The notes beneath the pieces are model-generated. The model saw nothing but the letters and a program-made list of their open reading frames with translations, was not told the origin of the DNA and searched no databases. 64,000 bases of DNA from a bacterium (lineage in GTDB: Bacteria > Patescibacteriota > Minisyncoccia > Phycocordibacterales > SBAW01): NCBI GenBank assembly GCA_037139975.1, contig JBAXFJ010000002.1, positions 90,099-154,098 of the forward strand. The letters run 5' to 3'. Positions 2,322 through 40,071 of the stretch are shown in pieces; the first letter of the stretch is position 1; the number at the start of each line of letters is the position of its first letter. A program made the position numbers and the translations under genes.

Positions 2322-2334
2322 TGGGGATAGGATT

Positions 2335-3108: not shown

Positions 3109-3114
3109 ATTATT

Positions 3115-3846: not shown

Positions 3847-3929
3847 GCAGTTTTGTAGTATAGCACACAAGCATAACAAAACCCCAAAACCTTGCGGTTA
3901 CTGGGGTTTTGTATGGGTTCGAGATCTTT

Positions 3930-4160
3930 TTATGCCATGCACACTTTACAGTCTTTTTTGTGTCCAACCACAAGCCACACCGCGGAGAGACCAACAAGCA
4001 CATATACAATACCTTCGAGCTTCATCGAAGAACCAACGACCATGTGTACCACATTCCAATCAGCACCTGTACCGCCCATCAACATACTGGCACCAACCAA
4101 ACCCCAATTTATTCCACCCACGATGGTAAGAATAAACGTAACCATGTGAAGTATTTTCAT
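3930..4160 (-). CDS. DUF378 family small membrane protein
   Basis: 76 aa with the 'VGGINWGLVG' motif characteristic of DUF378 (YuzA-like). Confidence 0.6.
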   Translation of the reverse strand: MKILHMVTFILTIVGGINWGLVGASMLMGGTGADWNVVHMVVGSSMKLEGIVYVLVGLSAVWLVVGHKKDCKVCMA

Positions 4161-4239
4161 TTTATTTTAAAAGAAAAATTCTACTAACGACACGGTCGAC
4201 CAGTCCGTGTATTAAGTATGAGGTTTTTTTGGTACATGT

Positions 4240-5568
4240 CTAGAGGTGTGGTAAGTAGGAAAGTGGATTCAAGTATGCTGAGATATCCCCCACCGGCATG
4301 GTGTAAGTCTTGCCATTACAACTCTTGCTTGCAAACGAGGCGACCTCAGACCCAGAGCTTGCGTACACGCCAAAGTGCAGATGCGGCCCTGTTGCATACC
4401 CTGTAGAGCCAGAATAACCGACCACTTGCCCCACACTCACGCTCTGGCCTTTTGAAACGCTGATCACTGAAAGGTGGGCATACAACGTAGAGAGGCCATT
4501 GTCGTGTTTAATAAAAACCCATTTACCATATGACGCTCCCGGACAAGTGGCGTCGGTGTTGCCTGTTCCTAAAATGACACCGCCGCGAGCAGCCTTCACT
4601 GGTGTACCTGGTGAAGCACCGAAGTCTACTCCGGTGTGCCCGTGACCATTGTAAAGTTGTGCGTTTGCTGTCGCAAATGGAGTGTTGCCAAAATATTGTG
4701 TGATGATTATCCTGCTCAGCGGCCACTGCAGCACGCCGCTCCCAGACGAAGGCACACTGCCCGCAAGAACCTTGAGGTCTAGCTGTGCCTCAAAGTTGAG
4801 CAGGTCTTGTTCGAATTGTGCCTCTTGCGCCTTTTTTTGAGCAATCTGTGCTTGATACACAGATTCTTTATTTTTTGTGGACACCAAGAGGTCGGCCTGA
4901 GTTTGTCGAGCAATAGCAAGACTCTGTTTTTGTTGTGCTAAGTTTTGCTGTAACCCAACAAGATCTTGACGCTTCCCGACAGCGCTCGTTTTGCTGACCT
5001 GTAAGCCAGCTTTAAGTGCGGTAAGTTTTTTTATTTTTTCCCCCAAACTAATGCGCACACTTGCAAGCGTGGTTGCTTCATCAAAAAAAGAAGAAAGAGT
5101 ACTGTTGCTTAAAAGCAAAAAAACTGGCGACTGCGCGTCAAGCATCCCTAACTCATTGAGCGAGCGGCCTACCTCTTGTTGCACCTGACCAATTTCATTG
5201 GTAGTGGTACTAATGTTGCCACTGAGTCGTTTAATCTCCCTGTCTTTTTGGGTGATTTGCACATTGGTAAGCGTAATGCTGGTCGCAAGCTTTTTTATAT
5301 TCAGATCAAGGCTTTTGACAGCGCCTTGCAGTGTTTGTTTTTGTTTGCTAGTAGTGTCGAGTTGCCCTTGTAGCTGTTCAATCTCTTGTTTGAGTTGATT
5401 TATTTGCTGCGCACTTTGATCTATTTGATTTTGCAGTACATCTGCGTTTGGCGCAACAGGCGCCGCAGCGACTGGCACGCTGGTTGTTGCGGTGTCTGCA
5501 TACACAAAAGAACATGGCAATAAAAAAAACAGTAGTAGTGCGCCAACAAAACGCCGAGTAACAAGCAT
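4240..5568 (-). CDS. M23 family metallopeptidase with N-terminal coiled-coil (EnvC-like murein hydrolase activator/LytM)
   Basis: Signal peptide, long Q/L-rich coiled coil, C-terminal 'GHTGVDFGASPGTPV...HLHFGVY' M23 motifs. Confidence 0.85.
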   Translation of the reverse strand: MLVTRRFVGALLLFFLLPCSFVYADTATTSVPVAAAPVAPNADVLQNQIDQSAQQINQLKQEIEQLQGQLDTTSKQKQTLQGAVKSLDLNIKKLATSITLTNVQITQKDREIKRLSGNISTTTNEIGQVQQEVGRSLNELGMLDAQSPVFLLLSNSTLSSFFDEATTLASVRISLGEKIKKLTALKAGLQVSKTSAVGKRQDLVGLQQNLAQQKQSLAIARQTQADLLVSTKNKESVYQAQIAQKKAQEAQFEQDLLNFEAQLDLKVLAGSVPSSGSGVLQWPLSRIIITQYFGNTPFATANAQLYNGHGHTGVDFGASPGTPVKAARGGVILGTGNTDATCPGASYGKWVFIKHDNGLSTLYAHLSVISVSKGQSVSVGQVVGYSGSTGYATGPHLHFGVYASSGSEVASFASKSCNGKTYTMPVGDISAYLNPLSYLPHL

Positions 5569-5577
5569 TGTCCTATT

Positions 5578-6930
5578 CTAAAGCAATTGCAGCGCCCGCT
5601 CAACACGTTCACGCACCTTTTCCCTCCCCAAGAGACCGCACAGCGTAAATGGGTCGGGCGATTTTTCTTTACCCGAGAGCGCAACACGCAGTGGCCACAA
5701 CACACTTGCCCTTCCTTCTTCGGTCGCATACGGAAAAAGTGCCAACCTAACTGTATCAATCGTAAAGTCTTGAGAAAAAATATTGTCCAATAAATCTTGA
5801 ACCATAGCAAGGTGTCGTTTGACCGTGTCGGCATCAGCTTTTGCCCCCTTGAGCAAGAGCTCTGGGGCATAGGTGACGTAAGGCTCCATAAAGCCAAATT
5901 CGCCCTCCAGGAGAGCATTTTGAGCCTCTAGGAGGGTTTCTACCCGCTCCCGAAGCAAGCCCGCAACTTGGGGGAAATAGGCAGGCAGGGCGACCTCTCC
6001 CGCTCCCGAACCACCACTCTTTGAGGCAAACTCGTGCACGCGAGCAATAAACTCATCGTCAGTGAGCCGCTTGATGTGCTCGTGGTTGAACCATTTGAGT
6101 TTTTCAATATCGAAAATAGCGCCTGCTTTATGTACACGTTCAAGCGAAAAAGTACTCACGAGCTCTTCAAGAGTAAAAAGTTCTTGTTCGGTCCCTGGGT
6201 TCCACCCCAGCAATGCCAAGTAATTAATAATCGCTTCGGGTAAAAATCCCTGAGCGCGATAATTTTCAATAGACGCGCCGTGTTTTCGTTTTGAAAGTTT
6301 TGCTCGATCGGGTGCAAGAATAAGGGGGAGGTGCGCATATGTTGGCCGCGCAAATCCAAGCGCTTCGAGGATGAGTATTTGCCGCGGAGTATTAGAGATG
6401 TGCTCCTCGGCACGCAAGACATGGGTGACTCCAGCATCCCCGTCATCTGCCACCACGGCAAAGTGATAGAGCGGATCGTTGAGCGAACGTGCAATAACAA
6501 AGTCTCCCAACTCTGTGGTGTCAAAAACAATCTCGCCGCGTATGAGGTCAGTGAAGGCTACAGCACTGTTGGGATTCTTAAGCCGAACGACTTCCACGGT
6601 TTGTGAAGGATCGTCTTTTTTTGGTTCTTTTGAAACATATGCCTTACCAGATTCCACAAGCGAGTGGAGCAGTTCTATATGCCGTTCCAAATGTTCAGAG
6701 GTGCGGTATTTGGCATCAGGCGGAAGCCCACACCAGGCAAAGTCCTCCCATATCGCATCCACCCACTCTTCTTTATTGCGCTCTTTATCGGTATCTTCAA
6801 TGCGAACAAAATAGCTACCATCATTCTGCTTTGCGAACAGATAGTTAAAAAGCGCGGTGCGGACTGTGCCGATATGCATCTGCCCCGTAGGACTTGGCGC
6901 AATGCGGGTGATGATTTTTTCAGGATTCAT
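5578..6930 (-). CDS. gltX: glutamate--tRNA ligase
   Basis: Class I HIGH motif 'PTGQMHIGTVRTALFNYLFAK', 'KLSKRK' KMSKS-like motif, 450 aa. Confidence 0.9.
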   Translation of the reverse strand: MNPEKIITRIAPSPTGQMHIGTVRTALFNYLFAKQNDGSYFVRIEDTDKERNKEEWVDAIWEDFAWCGLPPDAKYRTSEHLERHIELLHSLVESGKAYVSKEPKKDDPSQTVEVVRLKNPNSAVAFTDLIRGEIVFDTTELGDFVIARSLNDPLYHFAVVADDGDAGVTHVLRAEEHISNTPRQILILEALGFARPTYAHLPLILAPDRAKLSKRKHGASIENYRAQGFLPEAIINYLALLGWNPGTEQELFTLEELVSTFSLERVHKAGAIFDIEKLKWFNHEHIKRLTDDEFIARVHEFASKSGGSGAGEVALPAYFPQVAGLLRERVETLLEAQNALLEGEFGFMEPYVTYAPELLLKGAKADADTVKRHLAMVQDLLDNIFSQDFTIDTVRLALFPYATEEGRASVLWPLRVALSGKEKSPDPFTLCGLLGREKVRERVERALQLL

Positions 6931-6942
6931 GTGTTGCGCAAA

Positions 6943-8085
6943 TTATTTTTCGTGAGAAACAGCAATGTCGAGAAGGGCTGCGGCGATGGTGCGAGCAGCG
7001 TCTGGACGAGAAAAGCCCCTGGCAGCCACACTCATCTTTTGCATGATATCAGAATGATCAAGAATTCGCCCAACTTCAGAAACCAGCACACCGGGCGTGA
7101 AGTTATTTTGCTCAATCACCACTGTGGCCCCACTGCGAGCAAAAGAATAGGCATTGCGTGTTTGGTCGTGAGAAATTGACTGAGGGATGGGCACTACAAT
7201 TGACGGCAACCCCCAGGTTGAAATCTCAAAAATACTTCCCGCCCCTGCACGCGAAACCACAAGTTTAGCTGCTCCAGCAGCCATGCGCATCGCGAGCGCG
7301 TCGAGATACCCAAACGGCTTATACCGGTCCGCATGGGGGCTGTTGCTCAAAATGATTCGTGCGCGACCGGTAACTTCAGTAATGTTGAGTGCCCCCGTTT
7401 GATGAATTATTTGATATTTTTCGAGCAGCGTTGGAAGCGCGCCGAGCACCGTCTCGTTGAGCGCTGTTGCACCTTGCGAACCACCCAGAATCAGGAGAAC
7501 AGGGACTTCTGACTTTAGTTTTAAAAATTCATAAATACCACTACGCACCGGTGTCAAGAGGGCTTTTCTGACTGGGTTTCCTGTGTACGCAACCACGTCT
7601 TTAGGAAAATAGGTTGCCGCTTCAGGAAACGAGATAGCGACCTTTGTTGCAAACTTTCCTGCCCAACGGTTCACACGACTTGGTTCCGCATCGGTCGAAT
7701 AGATGATCACTGGGATGCGCAAAATACGCGCGGCGAGCAGTGTAGGAAAACTCGCATACCCACCCGCGCCCAACACTACGTCTGGGTAAAGAAAGAAGAG
7801 TCTCCAAACTGATTTTATCGTACCCCAGAGTGTCTTGAACAAGTCTATAAAATTAAAAAGGTAGCTCGAGGCAGACGAGTCGCGGCGCAACTTTCCCGCT
7901 GCGGTGGGCAAAAATGTAATGTCGTTCATGAACAACAAGTCAGCATCGTACGGATCCGGCGCTGCATAAAAAAGCTGCGGCTCCACATATTTTTTCTCGC
8001 GCACAAGCTCGTGCACTGCCTCAGCGATGGCAATAATTGGGTAAAAGTGTCCTCCGCTTCCCCCTGTGGTAAATAAAATCTTCAT
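6943..8085 (-). CDS. murG: UDP-GlcNAc--undecaprenyl-PP-MurNAc-pentapeptide GlcNAc transferase
   Basis: 'MKILFTTGGSGGHFYPIIAIA' N-terminal G-loop and 'LGGSQGA' motif. Co-located with ftsW and mraY. Confidence 0.9.
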   Translation of the reverse strand: MKILFTTGGSGGHFYPIIAIAEAVHELVREKKYVEPQLFYAAPDPYDADLLFMNDITFLPTAAGKLRRDSSASSYLFNFIDLFKTLWGTIKSVWRLFFLYPDVVLGAGGYASFPTLLAARILRIPVIIYSTDAEPSRVNRWAGKFATKVAISFPEAATYFPKDVVAYTGNPVRKALLTPVRSGIYEFLKLKSEVPVLLILGGSQGATALNETVLGALPTLLEKYQIIHQTGALNITEVTGRARIILSNSPHADRYKPFGYLDALAMRMAAGAAKLVVSRAGAGSIFEISTWGLPSIVVPIPQSISHDQTRNAYSFARSGATVVIEQNNFTPGVLVSEVGRILDHSDIMQKMSVAARGFSRPDAARTIAAALLDIAVSHEK

Positions 8086-8120
8086 AGTTTATTCAGTGTA
8101 TCAGAAAATAATTAACCTGA

Positions 8121-9218
8121 TCACCCTTTCATGTGGCGGGAGACCGAGAGAATGACGCCGACTTCGGCCAGAGAGAGCGCGAGGGCGGTTCCGCCGTGCG
8201 AGACAAAGATGAGCGGAATACCAACCAAAGGGACAAGACCGATGCTTGAAGCAATGTTGAAGAATGACTGCCCCACTATCATGGTGACAAGTCCCACCAC
8301 AATAAGCCCCCCAAAGGGGTCTGGTGCGCGCGCCGCGATGCGCAGACCCAAAATGCCGAAAATAGCAAACAAGAGCACCAACAATGTTGATCCAACAAAA
8401 CCAAATTCTTCGGCCGCAACTGCAAAAATCGAGTCCCCTGTTGGCTCGGGCAGATAGGAAAACTTTTCAATACTTTGACCGAATCCACGACCAGTGAATT
8501 GCCCCGAACCGACCGCGATGAGTGACTGTTGGATTTGATAGCCTGACCCACGCGGGTCAGCCGATTGATCAAGGAACGTTTCGATGCGCTTTGCCACATA
8601 CGGACGCTCGTATGCAGCAACACCTATCGCCAACACGCCCAACAAAGCCAGGAGTCCCAGGTGCGACACCCGCCCGCCTGCAGCAAACAGCATAGTGACT
8701 GCGGTGATTCCGATAACAATAACCCCAGCGGTGTTTGGTTGCACAAGCAAGATGAACGCTGCACTCCCTGCAACCAGCACCAACGGCACGATGCCACCAC
8801 GCAGAGTGTTCACTGTTTTGTAGCGTGCCGCATAGACCGCAGCAAGAAAGAGGACGGTTGCGAACTTTAAGATTTCTTCAGGCTGAAAAGAAAAACCCCC
8901 CACTCGTATCCAACGCGACGCCCCCTTAAGCGAGAGGCCGATGTGGGGCACAAAAGTAAGGAGTGTGAGAAAAAGAGCACCTCCGAAAAAATAGGGTGTA
9001 TAGGGTTTTAGTTTGCGGTAGTCGAGTCGAGAGAAAAAGATGAGAAGCACGCTCCCGCACAAAAGCCCAAAAAGAAGCTGTGACGCTGCCACTGAAGTAA
9101 AACTTGCACCACCTGGTTTTGCCAACAGCCCAAGCGCCGCCGAAGTGAAGATGAGTAGCCCAAACACTACCAATGTCAGCACGGAGAGCAAAAATGGTGT
9201 GTCGACTCGTCTTTTCAT
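8121..9218 (-). CDS. ftsW: FtsW/RodA/SpoVE family peptidoglycan glycosyltransferase
   Basis: 10-TM SEDS-family topology and conserved C-terminal 'GGTALALSL' region. Sits between mraY and murG. Confidence 0.85.
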   Translation of the reverse strand: MKRRVDTPFLLSVLTLVVFGLLIFTSAALGLLAKPGGASFTSVAASQLLFGLLCGSVLLIFFSRLDYRKLKPYTPYFFGGALFLTLLTFVPHIGLSLKGASRWIRVGGFSFQPEEILKFATVLFLAAVYAARYKTVNTLRGGIVPLVLVAGSAAFILLVQPNTAGVIVIGITAVTMLFAAGGRVSHLGLLALLGVLAIGVAAYERPYVAKRIETFLDQSADPRGSGYQIQQSLIAVGSGQFTGRGFGQSIEKFSYLPEPTGDSIFAVAAEEFGFVGSTLLVLLFAIFGILGLRIAARAPDPFGGLIVVGLVTMIVGQSFFNIASSIGLVPLVGIPLIFVSHGGTALALSLAEVGVILSVSRHMKG

Positions 9219-9219
9219 T

Positions 9220-10275
9220 CTACAGCAATGCCAAAGTCATGCCGATAATCGCAGCCAGAACACTCACCACCCAATAGCGCATCACCACTTTGTATGAAGG
9301 CCAACCAATTGCTTCAAAGTTATGGTGCAGCGGTGCGATGCGAAATATTTTTTTGTGCAACACTTTCTTTCCAAAAATTTGAATAATGTTTGAAAACACG
9401 GTTACAACAAGCGGCAATGCGATGATGGGGAGCACGGCGACGCCCCGACCCCCTTCGTGTGCGTCAGTGAGAAAAGCTATCACCACCAGTGCAAGCGTCA
9501 GGCCCATGGTGCCAGTTTCAGAAAGATAGAAACGTGCAGGAGGAATGTTGAACCATAAGAAGGCAAGAAGGCCGCCCGAAATAGCTGCCGCAAGGGCTGA
9601 AATATCAAACTGATTTTGGAAAAACGCAACCCCTGCATACGCAGCAAAAATAGCCGCAAAAACACCGCCCGCAAGACCATCGATGCCATCTATCACGCCG
9701 CCCGCATAGATGAAAAGCGCTACCAGAACAAAAAACGGGATGAACCAGAAGCCCAGCTGTACTGGCGCTGACACAAAGGGAAAGGAGATGACGGAGACGC
9801 CCAATTTGGCATAAAACCACCATGCACACAAAAATGAAATACCACCCACCACACCAAGTCGCACACGAAGTTTGAGCCCGCCCCTGCCGCGCACCTCAAA
9901 CCAATCATCAAAAAAACCCGCCACCGCACCCGCCACCAGCGCCGCAAGCGGCACCCAGGTTTGTTCACGACTGATGAACGCAAGTGCCCCGAAGGCATGT
10001 GGGTATATTGCAGAAAGAAATGATAGGAGTCCCGCAGTTGTGAGCACGCTCCCCCACACTACAACACCTCCCAAGCGCGGTGTGCCAGTATCAGTGGCCC
10101 CGTGGAGCTGGTTAAACATTGCCGCAGGCGTGCCATCGAGCGCTAATTTGCCAGCTTTAGGCTTCCACATTTTGTATTTGTAGAGCACATGCGATACAAA
10201 CGGCGTGATGCCTACACCAATCAAAAAAGAGATGGTTGCCGGAACAAAGATGCGCAAAATGTTGATGGTTGTCAT
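9220..10275 (-). CDS. mraY: phospho-N-acetylmuramoyl-pentapeptide transferase
   Basis: Polytopic membrane protein with the 'GVIDGIDGLAGG' MraY/glycosyltransferase-4 motif. Context mraY-ftsW-murG. Confidence 0.85.
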   Translation of the reverse strand: MTTINILRIFVPATISFLIGVGITPFVSHVLYKYKMWKPKAGKLALDGTPAAMFNQLHGATDTGTPRLGGVVVWGSVLTTAGLLSFLSAIYPHAFGALAFISREQTWVPLAALVAGAVAGFFDDWFEVRGRGGLKLRVRLGVVGGISFLCAWWFYAKLGVSVISFPFVSAPVQLGFWFIPFFVLVALFIYAGGVIDGIDGLAGGVFAAIFAAYAGVAFFQNQFDISALAAAISGGLLAFLWFNIPPARFYLSETGTMGLTLALVVIAFLTDAHEGGRGVAVLPIIALPLVVTVFSNIIQIFGKKVLHKKIFRIAPLHHNFEAIGWPSYKVVMRYWVVSVLAAIIGMTLALL

Positions 10276-10289
10276 GGCGGTTGTATATA

Positions 10290-10856
10290 TTATGCTTTTT
10301 CGCGATACGTTGTTTCAAACGCAGTGAGTTTTTCGCGCACTGTAGCATAGTCGGGCAAGTCGCCCAGGTGCGTGATCCCGAGTGTTGCAAGCAGCTCGGT
10401 CGTTGGCTCATAGAGGAACGCGCGCGCATCTTTTGGATTTTCTACCCGACGCACGAGCCCGCGCATGGTGAGCGTACGGAGAATCTGCGACGAATTGACC
10501 CCGCGGATGAAGTCTATGTCGCTGCGCGACAGCGGCCCTTTGTAGAGCAGCGCGGCCAGCGTCTCTTGCCCCGCACGCCCGACCTCGCGAGTAAACTCTT
10601 CTTTGCGGATGCGTTCTATTGTCTCGGCTGCCTCGGGCGCTGCACGCAGCTCGAGCATTGTGCCATCATCAACCACAACCACACCAGAACCCGTGCGGGA
10701 GCCCAAAAGCTCCAGCGCGCTCTGGACGCCATCCTCCACAATACCAAGCATCCGGGCCAACTCGGCACGCGCAACAGGCTTTCCCAAAGAAAAAAGTATT
10801 GCTTCGATGTGTTGTGCAATTTGTTCGGTGTTCATATGGTCGTGTCTACTATGCAA
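10290..10856 (-). CDS. scpB: segregation and condensation protein B
   Basis: 'MNTEQIAQHIEAILFSLGKPVARAELARMLGI' ScpB winged-helix N-terminus. Abuts scpA. Confidence 0.85.
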   Translation of the reverse strand: MHSRHDHMNTEQIAQHIEAILFSLGKPVARAELARMLGIVEDGVQSALELLGSRTGSGVVVVDDGTMLELRAAPEAAETIERIRKEEFTREVGRAGQETLAALLYKGPLSRSDIDFIRGVNSSQILRTLTMRGLVRRVENPKDARAFLYEPTTELLATLGITHLGDLPDYATVREKLTAFETTYREKA

Positions 10857-10858
10857 AT

Positions 10859-11608
10859 TTAATACGCCGGCGTCGAGACAGAGTCTGCCTCGAGCACAAT
10901 GTCCCCAAAGTGGTCACTTTGGTTTGCTTTGATTATACCCTGCTTCACCAACTCTAGTAGTGCCAGAAAACTGACGATCATGGTGTGCTTCATCTCCTCT
11001 CTGGTCTGTATGGCTTCTGTGCCGGCAGTTGCCCTGTTAAAATCTTTAAAGGAAAGTTGGAAAGCGCTTGAAACGCGCGCAGCAAGCTGCTCGATCATCT
11101 CCTCAAGCGAAGCGATTTTTTTAACAGCAACTTTAGGCAGCGCAAGCGTCGTCGGGAAACCGTCGATGAGTGCTTTTGCTGCAGCGCGCAGTGAATCAAA
11201 CGTGATGCTCGAGTCAAAAAGATAGAGTGGCTCAGGCGCAGGAGCCGAGCCGTCATATAAATATGCGTGTTCGTGCGCGGCCTGCCGGACACCCTGCGCC
11301 GCATCTTTGATGATTTTATACAGTGCAAGACGATATTCGAGCTGTTGTATGTCGTTTGACTCTTCGTTTGAAAGCGTGAGCGTGGGCAGGAGCGAACGCG
11401 ACTTGATGAGCAAAAGTGTCGCCGCCAGCGAAACAAAGTCGGCCGTCTCCCCCACTGGCATCTCGTCCATCTGACCAATACGCGCGATGTATTCGTCGGT
11501 CACACTCGCAAGCGAAATATCGTTGATTAGGAGCTTTCTCTTTTCTATTAAATCGAGCAGCAAATCAAGCGGCCCTTCATAGACAGATGTTTTGACATTA
11601 ATTGGCAT
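10859..11608 (-). CDS. scpA: segregation and condensation protein A
   Basis: 'YEGPLDLLLDLIEKRKLLINDISLASVTDEY' ScpA kleisin N-terminus. Confidence 0.85.
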   Translation of the reverse strand: MPINVKTSVYEGPLDLLLDLIEKRKLLINDISLASVTDEYIARIGQMDEMPVGETADFVSLAATLLLIKSRSLLPTLTLSNEESNDIQQLEYRLALYKIIKDAAQGVRQAAHEHAYLYDGSAPAPEPLYLFDSSITFDSLRAAAKALIDGFPTTLALPKVAVKKIASLEEMIEQLAARVSSAFQLSFKDFNRATAGTEAIQTREEMKHTMIVSFLALLELVKQGIIKANQSDHFGDIVLEADSVSTPAY

Positions 11609-11731
11609 TGGTCTCAGCGAAAACAGAATAAGGTTGAAGGAGGCTTTCGAGTGCGTCGGCGCGAGAACTGAGAAAATTTATCAGCAAGAAATTTTCGTAC
11701 TCCTGAAGCCTTGATTCTGTTGAAGCTTCTC

Positions 11732-13213
11732 CTATTCTACTCCACTTTCAATAAACGCGAACAAGAAACGCACGGGAGCGCCGGCTGCACCCTTGGCCAA
11801 ATATTCATTAGCGTTGGAGACCATGCGCGGCGCCATGTCGATATGCACCCAAAGACAGTCTAGGTCTTTGGCAAATTCGCGCAGAAACATGCCGCCTGCG
11901 ATGACCCCGCCGTAGCGGCTGTTGCCATCGGTCGAGATGTTGGGCACGTCACCAAAATTGCCTTTGACCATCGCCTCGTACTCTTCCCATGCAGGGAACG
12001 GCCACATATGGTCGCCACTTTTCTCGCCCGCTTGGACAATGTCTAGAATTTTTCCTTCGTCGTTGGTCATGAACGCAGACGCTTCGGTGCCAAGGGCGAT
12101 AAGAGATGCACCAGTTAAAGTAGCAACATCAATCACGGCTTTTGGATTATATTTTTTGGCATAGGTGATGCCATCGGCCAAAATGACGCGCCCCTCGGCG
12201 TCGGTGTTGAGCACTTCAATAGTCTTGCCCGACATCGACTTAAGGATGTCACCGGGGCGCACGGCGTTTTGGCCCGGCATGTTCTCGACTGCGGGCACCA
12301 AACCAACAACATTTGCTTTGAGTTTAAGTTTAGCCGCAAGCGCGAGCGTATGGATGACTGCCGCGCCGCCCGACATGTCCATGTGCATCTCGTACATGTG
12401 GTCGCCTGGCTTCATATTGAGCCCACCAGAGTCAAACGTAACGCCTTTGCCCACCAAAACGACCGGCTTTTCAGATTTTGCTGCACCCCAATATTCCATC
12501 ACAATAAACTGCGGCTCAAGCGCCGAGCCTTTAGCGATTCCCAAGACGCCGCCCATGCCGAGCTTCTCGATTTCTTTCTGACCCAACACTTTTACACTTA
12601 ATTTGGAACCTGCCCCAGCTTCTTTTGCTGCTTTCTTTGCCGCCTCGGCCAAAACCTTTGGCGTCATGTGGCCGCCCGGGGTGTTGGAGAGTTCGCGGCA
12701 CGCGTTGACGCTCTGACCGATCATCTGCCCGCGCTGTGCTGCCCGCTCGATAGAAGGGCTCGATGCACCACACAGCGCGATCTCCTCGACTTCATGCCAA
12801 CCATCTTTTGGTTTGGTCTTAAACGTGTTGTGCTCGTAGCCCGCCATCTCGAACGCCTGTGCTGCACGTGAAGAAATGGCCTCGGGTGTAAGCTTTTGCA
12901 AACTCGCAAACAACTCAGGCGTCCTATCAAACTGAATGGCAATCTTTTTAATTTTCTGTTCCATCGCCGCGCGCACAATAGATCGGCACAGGAGCGTAAA
13001 CTTGCGATGCGCCTTTTCGTCTTGCTTCCCCCCTTTCTTATCTTTATTTGCTGACAGCAAAAATCCCGCACCAATTTCGAGGCTCAAAACCTCGCCGTCC
13101 TTCCCAACTTCACGCACAAACCGCTTCGTACCCCTCGCCTCTTCGGTCAGAACCACCCGCACATAGCCCTTTGGCACGCTTTCTAAAGTTTTATACGCAA
13201 AATTAAATTTCAT
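11732..13213 (-). CDS. pepA: leucyl aminopeptidase (M17 family)
   Basis: 'NTDAEGRVILADG' cytosol aminopeptidase signature, 493 aa. Confidence 0.9.
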   Translation of the reverse strand: MKFNFAYKTLESVPKGYVRVVLTEEARGTKRFVREVGKDGEVLSLEIGAGFLLSANKDKKGGKQDEKAHRKFTLLCRSIVRAAMEQKIKKIAIQFDRTPELFASLQKLTPEAISSRAAQAFEMAGYEHNTFKTKPKDGWHEVEEIALCGASSPSIERAAQRGQMIGQSVNACRELSNTPGGHMTPKVLAEAAKKAAKEAGAGSKLSVKVLGQKEIEKLGMGGVLGIAKGSALEPQFIVMEYWGAAKSEKPVVLVGKGVTFDSGGLNMKPGDHMYEMHMDMSGGAAVIHTLALAAKLKLKANVVGLVPAVENMPGQNAVRPGDILKSMSGKTIEVLNTDAEGRVILADGITYAKKYNPKAVIDVATLTGASLIALGTEASAFMTNDEGKILDIVQAGEKSGDHMWPFPAWEEYEAMVKGNFGDVPNISTDGNSRYGGVIAGGMFLREFAKDLDCLWVHIDMAPRMVSNANEYLAKGAAGAPVRFLFAFIESGVE

Positions 13214-33836: not shown

Positions 33837-34508
33837 TTATGATAACCAATCTATCGCCTTTTTACCGTTTTTTTCTAAATACTCATTCGCTTTTTTGAAG
33901 TGCCCGCATCCAAAGAAGCCACTATGGGCAGAAAAGGGCGAAGGGTGGGCAGCTTCTAATACCAAATGTTTTGTGCGGTCTATGTGTGCGCCTTTTTGTT
34001 TGGCATAATTGCCCCAGAGCATGAATACTAGATTCTCTCTTTTTTCTGAAAGTGCTTTGACCACTGCGTCGGTAAACTCTTCCCAGCCTTTGTGTTGATG
34101 CGAGCCAGGGCTATGGGCACGCACGGTTAAAGTCGCGTTTAAAAGCAGCACGCCCTGCTTTGCCCAACGCGATAAATCGCCGCTTTTGTTTTGCATTGGC
34201 TCGCCATACTCCTTTTCAATTTCTTTAAAAATATTTTGGAGCGAAGGCGGGAGCACCACCTCCTCGCCCACTGCAAAGCACAGGCCGTTGGCTTGGCCCG
34301 CGCCGTGGTACGGGTCCTGGCCTAAAATTACCACCTCAACTTTTTCAAAGGGGCAGAGCTCGAAGGCGTTAAAAATATTTTTGGGCATTGGATACACCAC
34401 CCCGCTTTTGTATTCTTGTCTTACAAAACTCGCCAATTCCCCAAAATAAGGCTTTTCAAATTCATCGCCTATCTGCTGCTTCCATGACTCATTAATATTC
34501 ACTTCCAT
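33837..34508 (-). CDS. ung: uracil-DNA glycosylase (family 1)
   Basis: 'VVILGQDPYHGAGQANGLCFAV' and 'HPSPFSAHSGF' UDG motifs. Confidence 0.92.
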   Translation of the reverse strand: MEVNINESWKQQIGDEFEKPYFGELASFVRQEYKSGVVYPMPKNIFNAFELCPFEKVEVVILGQDPYHGAGQANGLCFAVGEEVVLPPSLQNIFKEIEKEYGEPMQNKSGDLSRWAKQGVLLLNATLTVRAHSPGSHQHKGWEEFTDAVVKALSEKRENLVFMLWGNYAKQKGAHIDRTKHLVLEAAHPSPFSAHSGFFGCGHFKKANEYLEKNGKKAIDWLS

Positions 34509-34574
34509 GGCCTTAGTATATTCTTATTTTGAGCCACAAAACAGCTATCCACAGGCTTGGTTGTTAGCACTGAC

Positions 34575-34602
34575 TTGACAATAATGTATATAACTGTATA
34601 AT
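34575..34602 (+). promoter_or_regulatory. near-consensus sigma70 promoter on the plus strand (TTGACA-N16-TATAAT, TG adjacent to the -10)
   Basis: Read directly: 'cTTGACAataatgtatataactgTATAATc'. Nothing annotated downstream on the plus strand except the antisense region of ogt. Confidence 0.5.
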
Positions 34603-34609
34603 CTTGCTA

Positions 34610-34874
34610 GATGTGCTGCAGTGAGCAGCGCTGAAACACCCCGAGGAGGGTTAAATGCGTAAATCAAGTTTCGGCCATCACCGTCTCGCCTCCCAAAAAG
34701 AGGCGTACGAGGCGACAAAGCGTCGCCCCATGAACAGGGCGAGGCCGCTGCTTCAGCGACGGCCTGCGAACAAAAAAGCGCCTAGGCGCACAAGGGGCAG
34801 CACCACGGTGCTGCCCCTCAACATTTCTATATATGCACCCCCTCATCTCGCAGCAGTGCGAGTTTTTTGTTTGC
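34610..34874 (+). ncRNA. candidate ~265-nt structured small RNA or short-ORF transcript antisense to the ogt 3' end
   Basis: Bounded by the consensus promoter at 34575-34602 and a plus-strand intrinsic terminator at 34847-34874 (CTCGCAGCAGTGCGAG + TTTTTTGTTTG). Contains GC hairpins GGCGAC..GTCGCC, GCGCCTAGGCGC and GGGGCAGCA..TGCTGCCCC, and an SD 'GAGGAGGG' before an ATG at 34655. Confidence 0.35.
34768..34819 (-). terminator. intrinsic terminator of ogt (minus strand: GGGGCAGCA-loop-TGCTGCCCC then GCGCCTAGGCGC + TTTTTTGTT)
   Basis: Two consecutive perfect hairpins and a U-tract just downstream of the ogt stop. Confidence 0.55.
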
Positions 34875-35210
34875 CCCACCCCGGTTATAGCCAGAGGGTT
34901 TGCCGTCAGAGCGGATGACGCGGTGACACGGCACTGTTGGATTAAAGTTATGAGACATAATCATCCCCACCGCGCGCGCCGCGTTTGGTTTGCCCGCTTT
35001 GCCCGCCACCTGCTTATAGGTCATCGTTTTGCCTTTGGGGATTTTGGCAACGATTGCATACACACGTGCTGCAAACGCACTTTGAAACACTTTTTTCTTG
35101 GGCGCTTTTTCTGGTTTCACCATTCCTGCAGCAGAGCTGCTAGAAAAGTTGACTGGTCGTTTCTGTTGCATCTTTATAGTTTTCTTTCTTAGCAATCTTT
35201 TTTGGCACAA
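34827..35210 (-). CDS. ogt: methylated-DNA--protein-cysteine methyltransferase (DNA-binding/active-site domain only)
   Basis: 'VPCHRVIRSDGKPSGYNRG' active-site PCHRV motif. Basic N-terminal tail. Start ambiguous: 35210, 35171 or 35126; 35210 overlaps the upstream nuclease by 71 nt. Confidence 0.8.
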   Translation of the reverse strand: MCQKRLLRKKTIKMQQKRPVNFSSSSAAGMVKPEKAPKKKVFQSAFAARVYAIVAKIPKGKTMTYKQVAGKAGKPNAARAVGMIMSHNFNPTVPCHRVIRSDGKPSGYNRGGANKKLALLRDEGVHI

Positions 35211-36006
35211 ACGAAGGGGTTGCTTGCTGTTGCGATTGAGTCAACCCTCCCCCGCCCGGGAGCACCGAGGCGACCGCTTCACGGTATTTGCAATAGTCAC
35301 AGTCTCCCCCCGCAGCGGGTAGAGCGCTGCTGTCGAGGCACGCTTTCAGTTGCACCAAGACGCCATCCACCCAGTCGGTTGAGCCTTTGTACGGCACCAG
35401 GGTGAGTTCGAAATCAAGCCGCCCATCGAACACCTCGCGGTCACGGGTCGCATTGGCATAAAACCAATACCCCATGTCGGACACCTTGAAACCGTTCTGG
35501 CGAAGCAGCCATTGGTATATCTCGAGCTGGCGTTTGTAGCCCCGATGCCACTCTTCATCGAGCGACTCTATCTTCCCGTCTTTGCTGGTCGCTTTATAAT
35601 CAATGACAATCAACTCTCCCGCTGTATTGACCCAAATGTCGTCAACGCCTCCGCGCACCATGAGGCCAGTTTCTTTGTGCAGATGCCGCACGCCCTGACT
35701 GAGCGCATTTCGCCACTCGTCCATCTGCGCATGCGCAAGTGGGACGGCATCGAGGCCATAGGCTTTGGCGAGTGGGTGCTGGGTGCCCTGCGCACGGTGT
35801 ACATCAAGCTCTTTTTTGAGCAATGCATCAACCGCACTGTTGAGGTTGAATGGATAGCCCGGTGGCCGCGCCACACCCAACCTGTTGTCAAGATAAAAAC
35901 ACCGAGCACACTCCATGAAGAGGTCTATTTTTGAGCGAGAAAGGGTCCACTTTGCCCCGCCGTAGCTATAATTTGGATTTCTATGTGGTTTGTAATACTG
36001 ACTCAA
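35140..36006 (-). CDS. PD-(D/E)XK nuclease family protein with Fe-S-type cysteines (Cas4/RecB-nuclease-like, stand-alone)
   Basis: 'GGVDDIWVNTAGELIVIDYK' D...D/E-x-K core and 'QLEIYQWLL' QxxxY motif. N-terminal 'ECARC' and C-terminal 'C-x13-C-x2-C' cysteines as in Cas4/AddB nuclease domains. Confidence 0.6.
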   Translation of the reverse strand: MSQYYKPHRNPNYSYGGAKWTLSRSKIDLFMECARCFYLDNRLGVARPPGYPFNLNSAVDALLKKELDVHRAQGTQHPLAKAYGLDAVPLAHAQMDEWRNALSQGVRHLHKETGLMVRGGVDDIWVNTAGELIVIDYKATSKDGKIESLDEEWHRGYKRQLEIYQWLLRQNGFKVSDMGYWFYANATRDREVFDGRLDFELTLVPYKGSTDWVDGVLVQLKACLDSSALPAAGGDCDYCKYREAVASVLPGGGGLTQSQQQATPSFVPKKIAKKENYKDATETTSQLF

Positions 36007-36048
36007 AGTAATAGTAGTGTACCCTATGTGTCCTCTGGTTGGCGAGTG

Positions 36049-36771
36049 TTAGTTGGTTTGGAATGTCGTCAGAAGCACGTTGCCCTGCGCATCTTTAACC
36101 TGTGGGTCGCCATGGAGTGTGAAGACCTTGTCGCCATCATCGACAGACTCACCCACAAAGTAGGTTTGGCCTGCAACAGTTGCACGCAACAGTGGAATTG
36201 TATTGGAATCAACACCCGGCAAAAACAACCCAGTACCAAGCGCGTTGCCCTGCACCCCACCATTGTCTTGATAGACCACAAACCATGTAGGAACAGACAC
36301 CGACACATTCGACACCTGCACCTCTGTGCCCGCAGGTTGAGGAGAAGCAACAGTAATTGGAAGCACACCACTTACGACGACTGGGGCGTTTGCTGCAATT
36401 ATTGCCTTGTCTTCCACACCTCCGCTATTTTTATCTTTCCCTGTATCTGCGTCTGTAGCGAGCGCTGACGAACCCGTGATACTGACAACTCCTTCTGACT
36501 TGTGCCGCAGCGCAACCATGCCCCACACTGCAACAATACAAAGCGCGAAAATACCAATAATTATACTTGCTGTCTTAAAACCACTTTGCGTGACAGGAGC
36601 AGGCATCGTGGTTGATGTTGTCACGATTGGTTGTGCGGTTGGTTGTGCGGTTGGTTTTTGTGATACTGCTGGCTGCGACCAGGTAAGCGTTGGCTTACTG
36701 CTTTGATTATTCTGATTACTCTGGCTACCTTGACCACTCTGACCGTTCTGATTGCTAGGCTTATCTTCCAT
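36049..36771 (-). CDS. membrane-anchored protein with Q/N/S-rich N-terminus (hypothetical)
   Basis: Low-complexity 'SNQNGQSGQGSQSNQNNQ' N-terminus, single TM 'IIIGIFALCIVAVWGMVAL', then an extracytoplasmic domain. Confidence 0.45.
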   Translation of the reverse strand: MEDKPSNQNGQSGQGSQSNQNNQSSKPTLTWSQPAVSQKPTAQPTAQPIVTTSTTMPAPVTQSGFKTASIIIGIFALCIVAVWGMVALRHKSEGVVSITGSSALATDADTGKDKNSGGVEDKAIIAANAPVVVSGVLPITVASPQPAGTEVQVSNVSVSVPTWFVVYQDNGGVQGNALGTGLFLPGVDSNTIPLLRATVAGQTYFVGESVDDGDKVFTLHGDPQVKDAQGNVLLTTFQTN

Positions 36772-36798
36772 ACATCTTGTGCTAAGTAATAAGTCTGA

Positions 36799-37650
36799 TT
36801 ATATATCGTTTCCTGGGACGCACAATGCCTCCACCTCTTGGAGCACCATGTCTGCTTTTTTTCCACGCACCCCAACCCGCGCAAGAGCGTCTGTGTCATG
36901 CGGCAAATCATTGCAAAGCACCTTTTTTTGTTCAAGCAGAGCCGTTTTTTGCTTTTTTGTCAGAGTGGTCAACGCAGTGATGGGGTAGAGCTTTGCGGCG
37001 TCGATGCGGTCGTGCAGATTGCCTTTCTCGGGATATTCCCATCCCAGCAGCTCGAGCCCGCGACAGGTAGCATACTGAATCGCCTTAGTCGTGAACTTGG
37101 TGTTCGTCACCACCAGCCCGCCTATTGTTTCGTGGGGCAGAGTTTTTTGTATATCATCAATGCGCGCCGACACATACAGCACCGTTTTAAGGTCAGTTTT
37201 GAAGCCTGCACTGTTATGAAATTTTGCTTCAACAAATGTTTTGATACCGCCTTTCTGCATGACCACGTCGACTTCATGTTCCACACACGCGCCCTGTACG
37301 ATCTGGTCGATGGTGGCGGTATACCCTTCGCGGCGAAAGAGCTCGGCTAGATAGGCTTCAAATGGAAAGCCCGAAGGCCCAAAGTCGAGTACGGCACGCT
37401 TGAGCGAGTAGCGTGCCGCAACCCCTTGCCGATGCTCGCGCAAGTGTGTAAACGCACGGTGGTAGATCTCGCTGGTGGTGACGCCAGGATACAACTCTCT
37501 TTCTATCTCCTCGCCAATGAGCGCCACCATTTCAGGCGTGGCTCCCACTCGCGCAAGCGAAGCGTGCAACTTGGCTAGGTCAAAAGGCTCTGCTATTCCA
37601 TCGGCCTTGACCACTAATGTTGGCCTGTACACAGTGTTGTTATTTTGCAT
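36799..37650 (-). CDS. ATP-cone domain fused to Mrr-type restriction endonuclease (PD-(D/E)XK) domain
   Basis: N-terminal 'LVVKADGIAEPFDLAKLHASLARVGATPEMV' ATP-cone (NrdR-like). Central 'FEAYLAELFRREGYTATIDQIVQGACVEHEVDVVMQKGGIKTFVEAKFH' matches the Mrr_cat core. Confidence 0.55.
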   Translation of the reverse strand: MQNNNTVYRPTLVVKADGIAEPFDLAKLHASLARVGATPEMVALIGEEIERELYPGVTTSEIYHRAFTHLREHRQGVAARYSLKRAVLDFGPSGFPFEAYLAELFRREGYTATIDQIVQGACVEHEVDVVMQKGGIKTFVEAKFHNSAGFKTDLKTVLYVSARIDDIQKTLPHETIGGLVVTNTKFTTKAIQYATCRGLELLGWEYPEKGNLHDRIDAAKLYPITALTTLTKKQKTALLEQKKVLCNDLPHDTDALARVGVRGKKADMVLQEVEALCVPGNDI

Positions 37651-38173
37651 TTCCTTTTATAACAGAAAACGAAACGGGGGTATCGTTAATAGTGATTCCT
37701 GCAAGTGAAGGTGAGTGAGTCGTAGGGCTCGCATATGATATAAGGAATGGCGTCGTTGAGGTACCTGCATCTGTACATGCACCGTCCGCTGCTTTGGTAA
37801 CACGAAATACCAACGCAAGCGTCACTGAACGTGTGCCGGTTGTTGAGACACCCGTTGAAAACATGTCGCAATTGGGGAGCGCTAATTCGCCTTGGTAGGT
37901 TTCCACACCCTGTTTGGAGCTGTGCTTTATAGTTATCCTGCGCGGCAACACATAGTTTGGGTCGGCTGCTGCAACCGGCTCTGTTTGGCGCAAAAGTGTT
38001 GTAGTGGGGGGTGGCTGTGGCGTCGAAGTGCGAGGCACAAAGACCACAACAAACCACCACAAAACAAGCACCAAGAGCATCAACATAATGAGCAGTAAGG
38101 AGCTTTGGTGTTTATGTGCCCGTTTCAGATGGCGCTGTATATGACGCTTCACACTGAAAGTATACCGCTTCAC
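37640..38173 (-). CDS. membrane-anchored hypothetical protein
   Basis: Basic N-terminus, one TM 'LLLIMLMLLVLVLWWFVVVF', Pro/Thr-rich linker. Overlaps the downstream gene by 11 nt. Confidence 0.4.
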   Translation of the reverse strand: MKRYTFSVKRHIQRHLKRAHKHQSSLLLIMLMLLVLVLWWFVVVFVPRTSTPQPPPTTTLLRQTEPVAAADPNYVLPRRITIKHSSKQGVETYQGELALPNCDMFSTGVSTTGTRSVTLALVFRVTKAADGACTDAGTSTTPFLISYASPTTHSPSLAGITINDTPVSFSVIKGNAK

Positions 38174-38203: not shown

Positions 38204-39289
38204 TCAAAAAAAATCAGTACGCACCACGACACCACCCCCGAGGCACACTTCCCCATTTTTTGTCCCTCGATAGAGAACGAGTGACTGACCAAGGGGGATG
38301 TGGCGTGGCTCAGAGAGAGTTACCACCACCTCTTCGCCCTCACGGGAGATGTGCGCGGGCAGGAGTGTTTGTCGATAGCGAAATCGGGCCAAACATTTCC
38401 CCTCGGGCGCAGCGCCAAGCCAGTTTGTGTCTGCGAGAGATATTTTTGTTTTTGTAACCCCTGTTGGATAGGGACTGCATGAGACCGTAATAGTGTTTTT
38501 TTCTATGTTCTTTCCAATGACATAGTAGGCAGGAGTTTCTGGTGAATGGACCGTAAGGGTAAAGCCGTGTCGCTCGCCGAGTGTATACAAGACCGCGCCT
38601 CGGTGTTCACCTACTACGTCACCATTTTCTGAAAGCACATTCCCTGGCACGGGCGCGAGCTCGTGCTCGAGCATATCTTTAATTGGTATGTTGCCCAAAA
38701 AGCACAAACCCTGACTGTCTTTGCGTCGCGCGTTTGGCAACGCAAACTTCTCTGCAAGCGCTCGCACTTCTGGTTTCTGCATACCGCCCACAGGAAAGAG
38801 CGTGTGCAGCAAGGCCCCTTTGGGCATCATCCACAGAAAATAACTTTGGTCTTTTTCGGTGTCGTTACCCGCATACAGCGCAGGCGCGCCAGAATCTGTA
38901 TTTTCTTTAATCTGCGCATAGTGCCCAGTGGCAACAAAATCGGCGCCGTGCTCTCGGACAAACTCATAAAATCTCCCAAACTTAATTTCTTTGTTGCACA
39001 GCGTATCAGGGTTGGGAGTGTTCCCTTTTCTAAATTCTTCTATCGAAGTCTGAAATACTGTTTTTTGATACTCGTTCGATAAGTCTAATTCTAAAAAAGG
39101 GATTTTTAAGTGCGCAGCCACGCGCATCGCGTCGAGTCTATCCTCACCCGCGGTGCAGGGATAGCCAGGCACCGTGATGCGGATAAACACCCCCGTCACG
39201 TCATACCCCGCCTTTTGCAACAGCGCGGCCGAAACGCCCGAGTCTACCCCGCCCGACAGGCCAACAAACACCACTCCTTTGCTTTTCAT
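38204..39289 (-). CDS. mnmA: tRNA 2-thiouridine(34) synthase
   Basis: PP-loop 'VFVGLSGGVDSGVSAALL', 361 aa. Start at the internal Met (MKSKGVVFVG). Confidence 0.88.
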   Translation of the reverse strand: MKSKGVVFVGLSGGVDSGVSAALLQKAGYDVTGVFIRITVPGYPCTAGEDRLDAMRVAAHLKIPFLELDLSNEYQKTVFQTSIEEFRKGNTPNPDTLCNKEIKFGRFYEFVREHGADFVATGHYAQIKENTDSGAPALYAGNDTEKDQSYFLWMMPKGALLHTLFPVGGMQKPEVRALAEKFALPNARRKDSQGLCFLGNIPIKDMLEHELAPVPGNVLSENGDVVGEHRGAVLYTLGERHGFTLTVHSPETPAYYVIGKNIEKNTITVSCSPYPTGVTKTKISLADTNWLGAAPEGKCLARFRYRQTLLPAHISREGEEVVVTLSEPRHIPLGQSLVLYRGTKNGEVCLGGGVVVRTDFF

Positions 39290-39391
39290 AAGCTTATGGT
39301 ACCTGAATTGCAATCGAGAGTCTAAAAACAACAAAGCCGCGCAACCAATTCACTTGAATGGGAGCGCGGCTCGAGGAATCGTGAGATCCCT

Positions 39392-39895
39392 CTAAACAAA
39401 CTTGGAGAACCCACGGATGGCCCCAGCGGCCAATGTCCAACCCTTACCGGTGAAATGATCGGCCGCATGACGAGCGGCAAACTTAACACCGGAACGAGCC
39501 GCTCTCCGTACTTTAGACTTCGTTTCTTCGTCGAGATTCTGGTACGCAGCGCTCACAGACTTTGTGCCCGCTGCCACGTGTTTGGCAACGATAACAATCG
39601 GCGCTGGACTTCTCCGACGAGCCGTGAGGCTCATGAAGAAGCTTACCCAGATGCTCGCCATCATGACAAGCACCATCGCAAACGTTGCGATCAGGACGGT
39701 CGCGTAGTCATTCCACCCGCCCCAAGTAAGGGCTGCGATGAAACCGATCTCACAGGTGACCAGTATGGCCAGAAAGCTTTTGAGTGCCCTGCTAGCACTC
39801 GCAAGCCCTAAGAATGCGCCGACCAGCGTGAGCAGGATCGGCAGCACGTAGACGATGAAGAGGAAACGGCTCATTGGTTTGTTACTCCTTGACAA
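39392..39895 (-). CDS. membrane protein (hypothetical, 3 TM plus basic cytoplasmic tail)
   Basis: Hydrophobic segments and coding-like composition. Confidence 0.4.
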   Translation of the reverse strand: MSRSNKPMSRFLFIVYVLPILLTLVGAFLGLASASRALKSFLAILVTCEIGFIAALTWGGWNDYATVLIATFAMVLVMMASIWVSFFMSLTARRRSPAPIVIVAKHVAAGTKSVSAAYQNLDEETKSKVRRAARSGVKFAARHAADHFTGKGWTLAAGAIRGFSKFV

Positions 39896-40071
39896 CGTTC
39901 AGTTCAGATTCCATTATACCATGATATGTACATATCTGTCAAGTATCCATAAAAGGCTTTAAAATTTGACTTTTAGTGCTTGTGTTGCGAGCTAATTTTG
40001 TTTTTTTATATATACCAGACTTCTTTATCTTACAGAATTTTATGAAAATAAAAATGTCTAACGCAAAAGCA

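Follow-up and report, generated by a model that had tools for sequence, protein, structure and literature searches.

The question raised by this locus is whether a gene that fuses an ATP-cone, a nucleotide-sensing domain, to an Mrr-type nuclease belongs to a dedicated defence system or to the housekeeping of the cell. The gene lies in a 64,000-nucleotide stretch of a Patescibacteria genome (contig JBAXFJ010000002.1; this whole stretch is called the window), within a cluster of four co-directional genes beside ung and ogt. An earlier note, made from the sequence alone, had suggested that the four genes could together form a module for defence or DNA processing and not serve housekeeping repair. 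Our analysis leads to a different answer. The best explanation, to which we assign a probability of roughly 0.55, is that the interval holds two separately conserved housekeeping units and that the fusion is a nuclease under the control of adenine nucleotides, working in the turnover and salvage of nucleic acid. The following genes and domains are concerned (aa, amino acids).

33837..34508, minus strand: ung, uracil-DNA glycosylase (PF03167, 62.4 bits)
34827..35210, minus strand: ogt, minimal O6-alkylguanine-DNA alkyltransferase (PF01035, 101.8 bits)
35140..36006, minus strand: stand-alone RecB/Cas4-like PD-(D/E)XK nuclease of 288 aa (PDDEXK_1)
36049..36771, minus strand: Q/N-rich single-pass membrane protein of 240 aa, with a hydrophobic segment and a weak DUF7282-like domain
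36799..37650, minus strand: the fusion, an ATP-cone/Mrr_cat/AF1548-like-C nuclease of 283 aa (start ATG 37650) or 271 aa (start GTG 37614)
36823..36987, minus strand: AF1548-like C-terminal helical domain, fusion residues 222-276 (PF22357, below cutoff)
37048..37371, minus strand: Mrr_cat PD-(D/E)XK catalytic domain, fusion residues 94-201 (PF04471)
37396..37617, minus strand: ATP-cone domain, fusion residues 12-85 (PF03477)
37640..38173, minus strand: single-pass membrane protein without known family, 177 aa (called as 148 aa)
38204..39334, minus strand: mnmA, tRNA 2-thiouridylase (Pfam), in Patescibacteria the neighbour most constantly kept beside the fusion

The four open reading frames (ORFs) were confirmed as co-directional minus-strand genes at these coordinates, next to ung and ogt as had been described. 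The domains of the fusion were checked with hidden Markov models (HMMs), and both proposed assignments scored above their Pfam cutoffs, the ATP-cone with 32.2 bits (cutoff 25.8) and the Mrr_cat domain with 34.8 bits (cutoff 21). The C-terminal AF1548-like_C domain reached 18.8 bits and stayed below its cutoff of 23.9, which relatives of the fusion exceed. Of the 120 closest relatives, nearly all are annotated with PF03477. The reported overlap of 11 nucleotides (nt) between the fusion and the 177-aa gene is found only with ATG 37650 as start codon. With the GTG at 37614 that was chosen by the gene callers, the two genes are separated by a gap of 25 nt.

Next to the domain composition, the residues of both domains were inspected in an alignment of 37 sequences with 35-57% identity. 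Residues E98, E126, D128, E141 and K143 of the fusion are invariant in this set. As the PD-(D/E)XK triad is among them, the nuclease looks catalytically competent. The contact residues of the cone are similarly well kept: K15 in 36 of 37 sequences, E21 in 25, position 23 in all 37 as F or Y, and K27 in 36. Their spacing is identical to that of K50, E56, F58 and K62 in the NrdR protein of Streptomyces coelicolor, residues that bind phosphates and select adenine (PMC9110341). The fusion cone thus shares domain, fold and the Lys/Glu/Phe/Lys contact spacing with the cones of NrdR and of ribonucleotide reductases (RNRs), whereas the output differs, being a Zn-ribbon or a reductase there and a nuclease here.

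The AlphaFold (AF2) model of the fusion is confident (pLDDT 88, pTM 0.81) and has a helical C-terminal domain. A Foldseek search superposed the model on the cone of Escherichia coli NrdR (9fxk) with a root-mean-square deviation (rmsd) of 1.7 Å over 81 residues, and the cones of NrdA, NrdD and NrdB were matched too. A profile of the cone region, searched against PDB sequences, returned mostly designed helical repeats, with NrdR at only about 18 bits. The C-terminal two-thirds of the model matched AF1548 (1Y88) with E=4e-15, 35% identity and a TM score of 0.78 on the target. For the nuclease core, matches were obtained to NucS/EndoMS, MspJI, Can2/Card1/Cdn1 and Avs3 effector domains. Of the earlier idea of a (d)NTP-regulated DNase, a nuclease with regulation via the cone is plausible, given the invariant D128/E141/K143, the cone contacts and the NrdR superposition.

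We then asked which neighbours travel with the fusion. Therefore, 65 Patescibacteria loci were compared, and neighbour counts were split into close and more distant relatives of the fusion. The mnmA gene is found directly upstream of the fusion in 14 of 14 close and 38 of 42 distant loci (52/56), down to a fusion identity of 42%. The PD-(D/E)XK gene is present downstream in 11/11 close and 20/40 distant loci, and ogt lies nearby in 10/11 and 17/40, respectively. Counts for the membrane proteins were lower among distant relatives. The 240-aa protein is encoded near the fusion in all 11 close and in 9 of 40 distant loci (20/51), and the 177-aa protein upstream of it in 5 of 14 close and none of 42 distant loci (5 of 56 detectable). 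An MgtC gene, which is not present in the window, directly follows the fusion on its 3' side in 30 of the 65 loci (for example at 7589-8068 in locus L003 and 7491-7973 in L005), and often adjoins the gene for the 240-aa protein. Where the PD-(D/E)XK gene and ogt are both present, they abut or overlap in 24 of 25 loci, with the ogt stop 223-317 nt past the PD-(D/E)XK stop.

By these split counts, the interval falls into two conserved pairs: mnmA with the fusion, and the PD-(D/E)XK gene with ogt, behind which ung is frequently found. The membrane genes that separate the pairs vary. A four-gene operon acting as one functional unit was rejected, because the neighbour statistics separate the two pairs. 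Throughout the class, one encounters the order mnmA, fusion, membrane protein and/or MgtC, PD-(D/E)XK, ogt, ung. What precedes mnmA has changed in this genome, an ATP synthase operon replacing leuS-sigma-DUF8128-yceG. Despite this exchange, mnmA stayed beside the fusion. The interval is part of a long, co-directional and vertically inherited string of core genes and is not a dedicated four-gene system. The earlier idea of a single module set apart from housekeeping is not supported by this comparison: the genes belong to a core synteny block and to two separate units.

The second unit was analyzed by its nuclease. The 288-aa protein matches PDDEXK_1 with 56.1 bits (cutoff 22), and the motifs D123, D136-x-K138 and Q160xxxY164 are conserved. 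So are the cysteines C33-x2-C36 and C236-x2-C239, while C223 is conserved in only 74%. Relatives across Paceibacterota are 72-86% identical, and Foldseek returned AdnA, Cas4 (8d3l, 4ic1), MGME1, Dna2 and Exo5. With Cas4, AddB, AdnA, Dna2 and Exo5 the protein has in common the PDDEXK_1 domain, the D, DxK and QxxxY motifs and terminal cysteines that clamp the domain. The description as a Cas4-like nuclease with a QxxxY motif and N- and C-terminal cysteines was thus correct in these features. The arrangement of the cysteines, in contrast, is CxxC...CxxC (2+2) and not the C...CxxC...C (1+3) of Cas4/AddB (in Cas4, C-Xn-C-X2-C-X5-C). The Cas4 model TIGR00372 gave 29.1 bits, below its cutoff of 65, and the Cas4 models of PADLOC gave only E=2e-7 to 6e-4. 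Membership in Cas4 was rejected on this score, on the 2+2 cysteines and on the missing context: as had been noted before, neither a CRISPR array nor a cas gene was found in the window. Instead, the gene is coupled to ogt.

The likely start of ogt is ATG 35171 or ATG 35123, which lie 32 nt before and 16 nt after the PD-(D/E)XK stop, respectively, and ung follows downstream of ogt in close relatives. Unit 2 would then consist of a RecB/Cas4-like nuclease with a CxxC...CxxC four-cysteine site, of ogt, to which it is coupled in translation, and of ung behind them. Strong conservation and coupling to ogt and ung suggest that the 288-aa protein is most likely a housekeeping nuclease of DNA repair or end processing. 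DNA repair operons had been named beforehand as surroundings that would speak against a defence module. This applies in part, since the Cas4-like half lies beside the repair genes ogt and ung.

Two further observations concern the products of this unit. The tail of the 288-aa protein (35140-35270) is Lys-rich, predicted to be disordered and ends in Q-L-F. An x-L-F-COOH end is found in about half of the diverse homologues and in most close ones, and one may speculate that it is a docking motif, possibly of the clamp type. The ogt product is only 98-127 aa long and consists of the DNA_binding_1 domain alone, with an intact PCHRV active site.

How widespread is the fusion? Its homologues fall into more than 4374 clusters at 90% identity, the best 120 of which are 60-100% identical to it, and 423 clusters at 50% identity match it over the full length with E<1e-30. 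At least 597 species genomes carry the gene. Carriers include Patescibacteria, Bacteroidota (Owenweeksia, Chitinophaga, Roseivirga, Fluviicola, Flavobacteriaceae), Parachlamydiales and many Archaea, and the three-domain layout is kept in Archaeoglobi, Geoglobus, Ferroglobus, Bathyarchaeia, Korarchaeota, Aenigmarchaeota and Nanoarchaeota. By its sequence distribution, the combination of ATP-cone, Mrr_cat and AF1548_C is an ancient architecture and a single-gene family. The databases already annotate the family, as 'ATP cone domain-containing protein' or 'restriction endonuclease'. A full-text literature search, which left subscription journals largely outside, found neither a paper on a fusion of ATP-cone and nuclease nor one on an 'ATP cone domain-containing protein', and no functional study of the family. 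The locus is thus a further copy of an annotated, functionally uncharacterised family and is in itself ordinary.

The member of known structure is AF1548 from Archaeoglobus fulgidus. A phmmer search aligned residues 97-274 of the fusion with the PDB entry 1Y88 (E=2e-28), which makes AF1548 a direct homologue comprising the nuclease and the C-terminal helical domain. Among the literature found, AF1548 is discussed only in the Global Ocean Sampling (GOS) paper, where a restriction-endonuclease fold was predicted with the catalytic residues 38D, 51E and 53K (PMC1821046); these match the D/E/K residues of the fusion. The crystallised chain of 199 aa differs in that the ATP-cone is missing. In contrast, the natural full-length protein of 265 aa (P0391), which is 99% identical to the AF1548 fragment, carries ATP-cone, Mrr_cat and AF1548_C, as does the fusion in the window, and the cone is present in all archaeal relatives. 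Thus 1Y88 is a truncated form, which probably results from a mis-annotated start.

For the gene contexts outside Patescibacteria, 19 loci of Bacteroidota and Chlamydiota were analyzed together with 84 archaeal-centred ones. Neither a PD-(D/E)XK gene nor mnmA was found beside the fusion in any of them, and ung was found in none. A single weak ogt-like match was seen about 5.9 kb from the fusion and on the opposite strand (locus L125). Four of the 19 bacterial loci share the order ATP-cone nuclease, beta-CASP/RMMBL hydrolase, a thymidine-phosphorylase (TP)-family protein of about 500 aa and a Prs-like protein. They belong to Pontibacter actiniarum, Criblamydia sequanensis and two Bacteroidota metagenome-assembled genomes (L038, L050). 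The operon is located at 1972-6597 in locus L087 and at 7995-12602 in locus L088. The beta-CASP gene, with its RNA-specificity RMMBL domain, directly follows the fusion in 8 of the 19 loci. Near the fusion in Bacteroidota and Chlamydiota, one often finds genes for tandem universal stress proteins (Usp), Crp-type regulators, PAS kinases and P-type ATPases. The four-gene operon itself often stands beside tandem Usp genes, phosphoketolase, acetate kinase and a P-type ATPase. Overall, the operon of Bacteroidota and Chlamydiota looks like a low-oxygen or dormancy locus. In Bradyrhizobium, microoxia induces both the transcripts and the proteins of a trio of metallo-beta-lactamase (MBL), Prs and TP (PMC6515984).

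A second arrangement was observed in five Bathyarchaeia-type contigs (L094 at 2463-5873; L095, L096, L099 and L101), in which an IF-2B-like gene, a gene for a 514-aa TP-family protein and the ATP-cone nuclease gene follow each other. The nuclease gene overlaps the 3' end of the TP-family gene, and the IF-2B-like gene belongs to the ribose-1,5-bisphosphate-isomerase family. The fusion proteins of these contigs share 48-100% identity with the query P0490 from Bathyarchaeia. In one further archaeal-centred locus, a TP gene adjoins the fusion on the opposite strand. As the gene orders differ between lineages, the fusion has been associated independently with a gene of the AMP/thymidine-phosphorylase type.

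Taken by its genes, unit 1 would consist of mnmA followed by a cytoplasmic nuclease with an ATP-cone, a minimal PD-(D/E)XK domain and an AF1548-type helical nucleic-acid-binding domain. We propose that the fusion would cleave nucleic acid and that adenine nucleotides would control this activity, either by ATP versus dATP or by the level of ATP. ATP-cones have been studied in RNRs and NrdR, where they work via nucleotide-dependent oligomerisation. The switch in the fusion would probably be of the same kind. Its most likely role would be a controlled breakdown of nucleic acid that feeds nucleotide salvage or catabolism. Two lines of evidence point to this role, the TP-family operons in three distant lineages and the abundance of the family in the candidate phyla radiation (CPR) and in DPANN. 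These organisms are largely without nucleotide synthesis, which fits the abundance of the fusion there. The pathway of AMP phosphorylase and ribose-1,5-bisphosphate isomerase is archaeal and has been reported in CPR together with form II/III RuBisCO. Relatives of the fusion are operonic with TP and IF-2B-like genes in the Bathyarchaeia-type loci and with TP and Prs-like genes in Bacteroidota and Chlamydiota.

A broader, tentative extension would make AF1548-type ATP-cone nucleases in general widespread metabolic nucleases. The cone would read the adenine-nucleotide pool, as the level of ATP or the ATP/dATP ratio, and the nuclease would degrade own, damaged or imported nucleic acid for salvage or for the AMP-phosphorylase/pentose-bisphosphate route. 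If this were true, the family would be a so far unrecognised class of metabolic nucleases central to the economy of CPR and DPANN, for which nucleotide synthesis is not possible. Elsewhere among bacteria, it would belong to programmes for low oxygen or dormancy. It would also be the first nuclease controlled by an ATP-cone and a new form of nucleotide-pool control. Thousands of genomes encode this pairing of the cone with a nuclease that looks active, and it is especially common in the ultra-small CPR and DPANN, which rely on nucleotides that they scavenge.

Several observations weigh against a salvage nuclease in two housekeeping units. The phosphorylase link is found in a minority of loci (4/19 bacterial non-CPR and 6/61 archaeal-centred). 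No phosphorylase gene and no other gene of the AMP-phosphorylase pathway was present in any Patescibacteria locus examined, the window included, so that the link is guilt by association from other lineages. Other archaeal contexts are mixed and include DJ-1/PfpI, CorA, a permease-Usp fusion and a DHH phosphoesterase. The constant neighbour of the fusion in Patescibacteria is mnmA, for which salvage does not account, and in streamlined CPR genomes a conserved order of genes may be a matter of descent and not of function. Furthermore, the residue beside the first Lys of the cone is Ala/Ser and not the Arg that is usual in RNR cones. For the second unit, the model of the 288-aa protein is of moderate confidence only (pLDDT 67).

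Two other housekeeping functions were weighed against salvage. The fusion could be a repair or recombination endonuclease, structure-specific like NucS/EndoMS or Hjc, with the cone tying its activity to the dNTP pool and with the PD-(D/E)XK nuclease, Ogt and Ung as partners. Close relatives indeed keep the order fusion, PD-(D/E)XK, ogt, ung (PD-(D/E)XK in 11/11, ogt in 10/11), uvrA and uvrC are encoded about 10 kb upstream of the cluster, and Foldseek aligned NucS (2vld) and EndoMS (5gke) at 2.7-2.9 Å over about 112 residues. The C-terminal helical domain would suit DNA binding, and JGI lists relatives as 'Holliday junction resolvase'. We regard this function as a serious rival, though a rather unlikely one. 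The link to PD-(D/E)XK and ogt falls to 20/40 for the former in distant Patescibacteria, and Bacteroidota, Chlamydiota and Archaea lack it; unrelated genes (MgtC, membrane protein) sit between the two nucleases; the recurrent partners outside CPR are nucleotide-catabolic or stress genes and not repair genes; and Geoglobus has a separate Hjc gene three genes from the fusion. An ATP-controlled action on RNA, in the turnover of tRNA or rRNA, overlaps with the salvage reading, which is neutral between DNA and RNA. The tRNA-thiolation gene mnmA as most constant Patescibacteria neighbour and the beta-CASP/RMMBL genes of other bacteria speak for it. AMP phosphorylase pathways (the archaeal pentose-bisphosphate pathway) consume ribonucleoside monophosphates, which also counts for RNA. 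As a distinct explanation it is improbable: no RNA-binding domain was detected in the fusion, relatives of the Mrr_cat/AF1548/NucS type with known substrate act on DNA, and the mnmA linkage may be an inherited gene order.

An anti-phage module resembling abortive infection was also considered, in which the cone would sense depletion or change of (d)NTPs and unleash the Mrr-type nuclease, with the Cas4-like protein and the membrane proteins as partners. A sensor domain joined to a PD-(D/E)XK nuclease is a common layout in defence, and Foldseek aligned domains of Can2/Card1/Cdn1, MspJI and Avs3. The pairing of a nucleotide sensor with a minimal PD-(D/E)XK domain in Can2/Card1/Cdn1 follows the same logic. 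These proteins differ, however, by a CARF sensor in place of the ATP-cone, and the fusion has no CRISPR or CBASS neighbourhood, so the likeness is one of design and not of family. Similarly, the Mrr_cat core with D...ExK is common to the fusion and the Mrr-type (type IV) restriction endonucleases. The N-terminal domain of the fusion, in contrast, is the ATP-cone; a winged-helix or modified-DNA reader in this place and a restriction-modification context are missing, and the gene is core and syntenic, not patchy, which places it outside type IV restriction. PADLOC-DB v2 gave no system-level match. The fusion had a weak and generic match to the nuclease domain of ZorD (E=1e-4), the 288-aa protein a weak one to Cas4, and the membrane proteins none.

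Neither did the distribution of the genes resemble that of a defence system. The fusion is embedded in core genes with synteny kept across a bacterial class, and a near-universal single copy at the same chromosomal position is already largely seen across Paceibacteria. It is 60-70% identical among many genomes, unlike fast-evolving defence genes. Together with the 72-86% identity of the PD-(D/E)XK protein, this conservation at a fixed position is the opposite of a defence island. The proposed partners are not co-inherited with the fusion beyond close relatives. A tblastn search found no copy of the fusion in phages and, among plasmids, copies in only two megaplasmids, both within metabolic operons. 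A fold search of the viral database BFVD gave single-domain matches only and no full-length relative of the fusion. No mobile element or defence gene was seen in the window, and no methyltransferase lies near the cluster. The defence module was rejected on the lack of a PADLOC system, of a phage copy, of a CRISPR array and of a full-length viral fold match, and we consider it very unlikely. A 'sensor plus nuclease' protein should not be called a defence protein before its conservation and context have been checked.

The two proteins between the conserved pairs are membrane-anchored, as had been described. Each has one strong hydrophobic segment, and the N-terminus of the 240-aa protein consists of 25% Q+N. 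The C-terminal part of the 240-aa protein weakly resembles the extracytoplasmic domain DUF7282 (E=0.004, below cutoff), and the protein probably stands outside any nuclease system. Both membrane proteins have extracytoplasmic domains and fill the space in a lineage-specific way. A neighbour of another kind was seen in Ferroglobus placidus, where a CorA gene overlaps the start of the fusion (L092, 3958-5001). Given the recurrence of Mg2+-related neighbours (MgtC, CorA), a link of the fusion to ATP/Mg2+ homeostasis is possible.

The window as a whole represents a core Patescibacteria (Paceibacteria-like) genome. It encodes uvrA, uvrC, ddl, the ATP synthase operon, ribosomal proteins, rpoA, grpE-dnaK-dnaJ, several tRNA synthetases and scpAB. 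Identical proteins are encoded on a metagenomic contig of 173.8 kb. The nearest named relatives of its proteins are Patescibacteria (Paceibacterota, Adlerbacteria), and Rfam detected one tRNA only. Downstream of ogt, the following element was read from the sequence.

34772..34817, minus strand: likely intrinsic terminator, two G+C-rich hairpins followed by T6

These hairpins and the T6 run likely end the gene string after ogt. At its other side, the minus strand at 39913-39942 holds a 12/12 match to a sigma-70-like promoter with an extended -10 TG, located upstream of a gene for a 167-aa multi-pass membrane protein (39392-39895). Transcription from this promoter may extend across mnmA and the nuclease genes as far as the terminator behind ogt.

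The spacer between ogt and ung (34509-34826) is strongly structured, with a folding z of about -5 on both strands. A conserved RNA was considered for this spacer and rejected, since no Rfam match was above threshold and the sequence is unconserved in related loci. On the plus strand, the spacer contains a perfect TTGACA-16-TATAAT at 34575-34602, which is directed antisense toward ogt. Downstream of this promoter match, the gene caller placed an ORF of 87 aa at 34655-34918.

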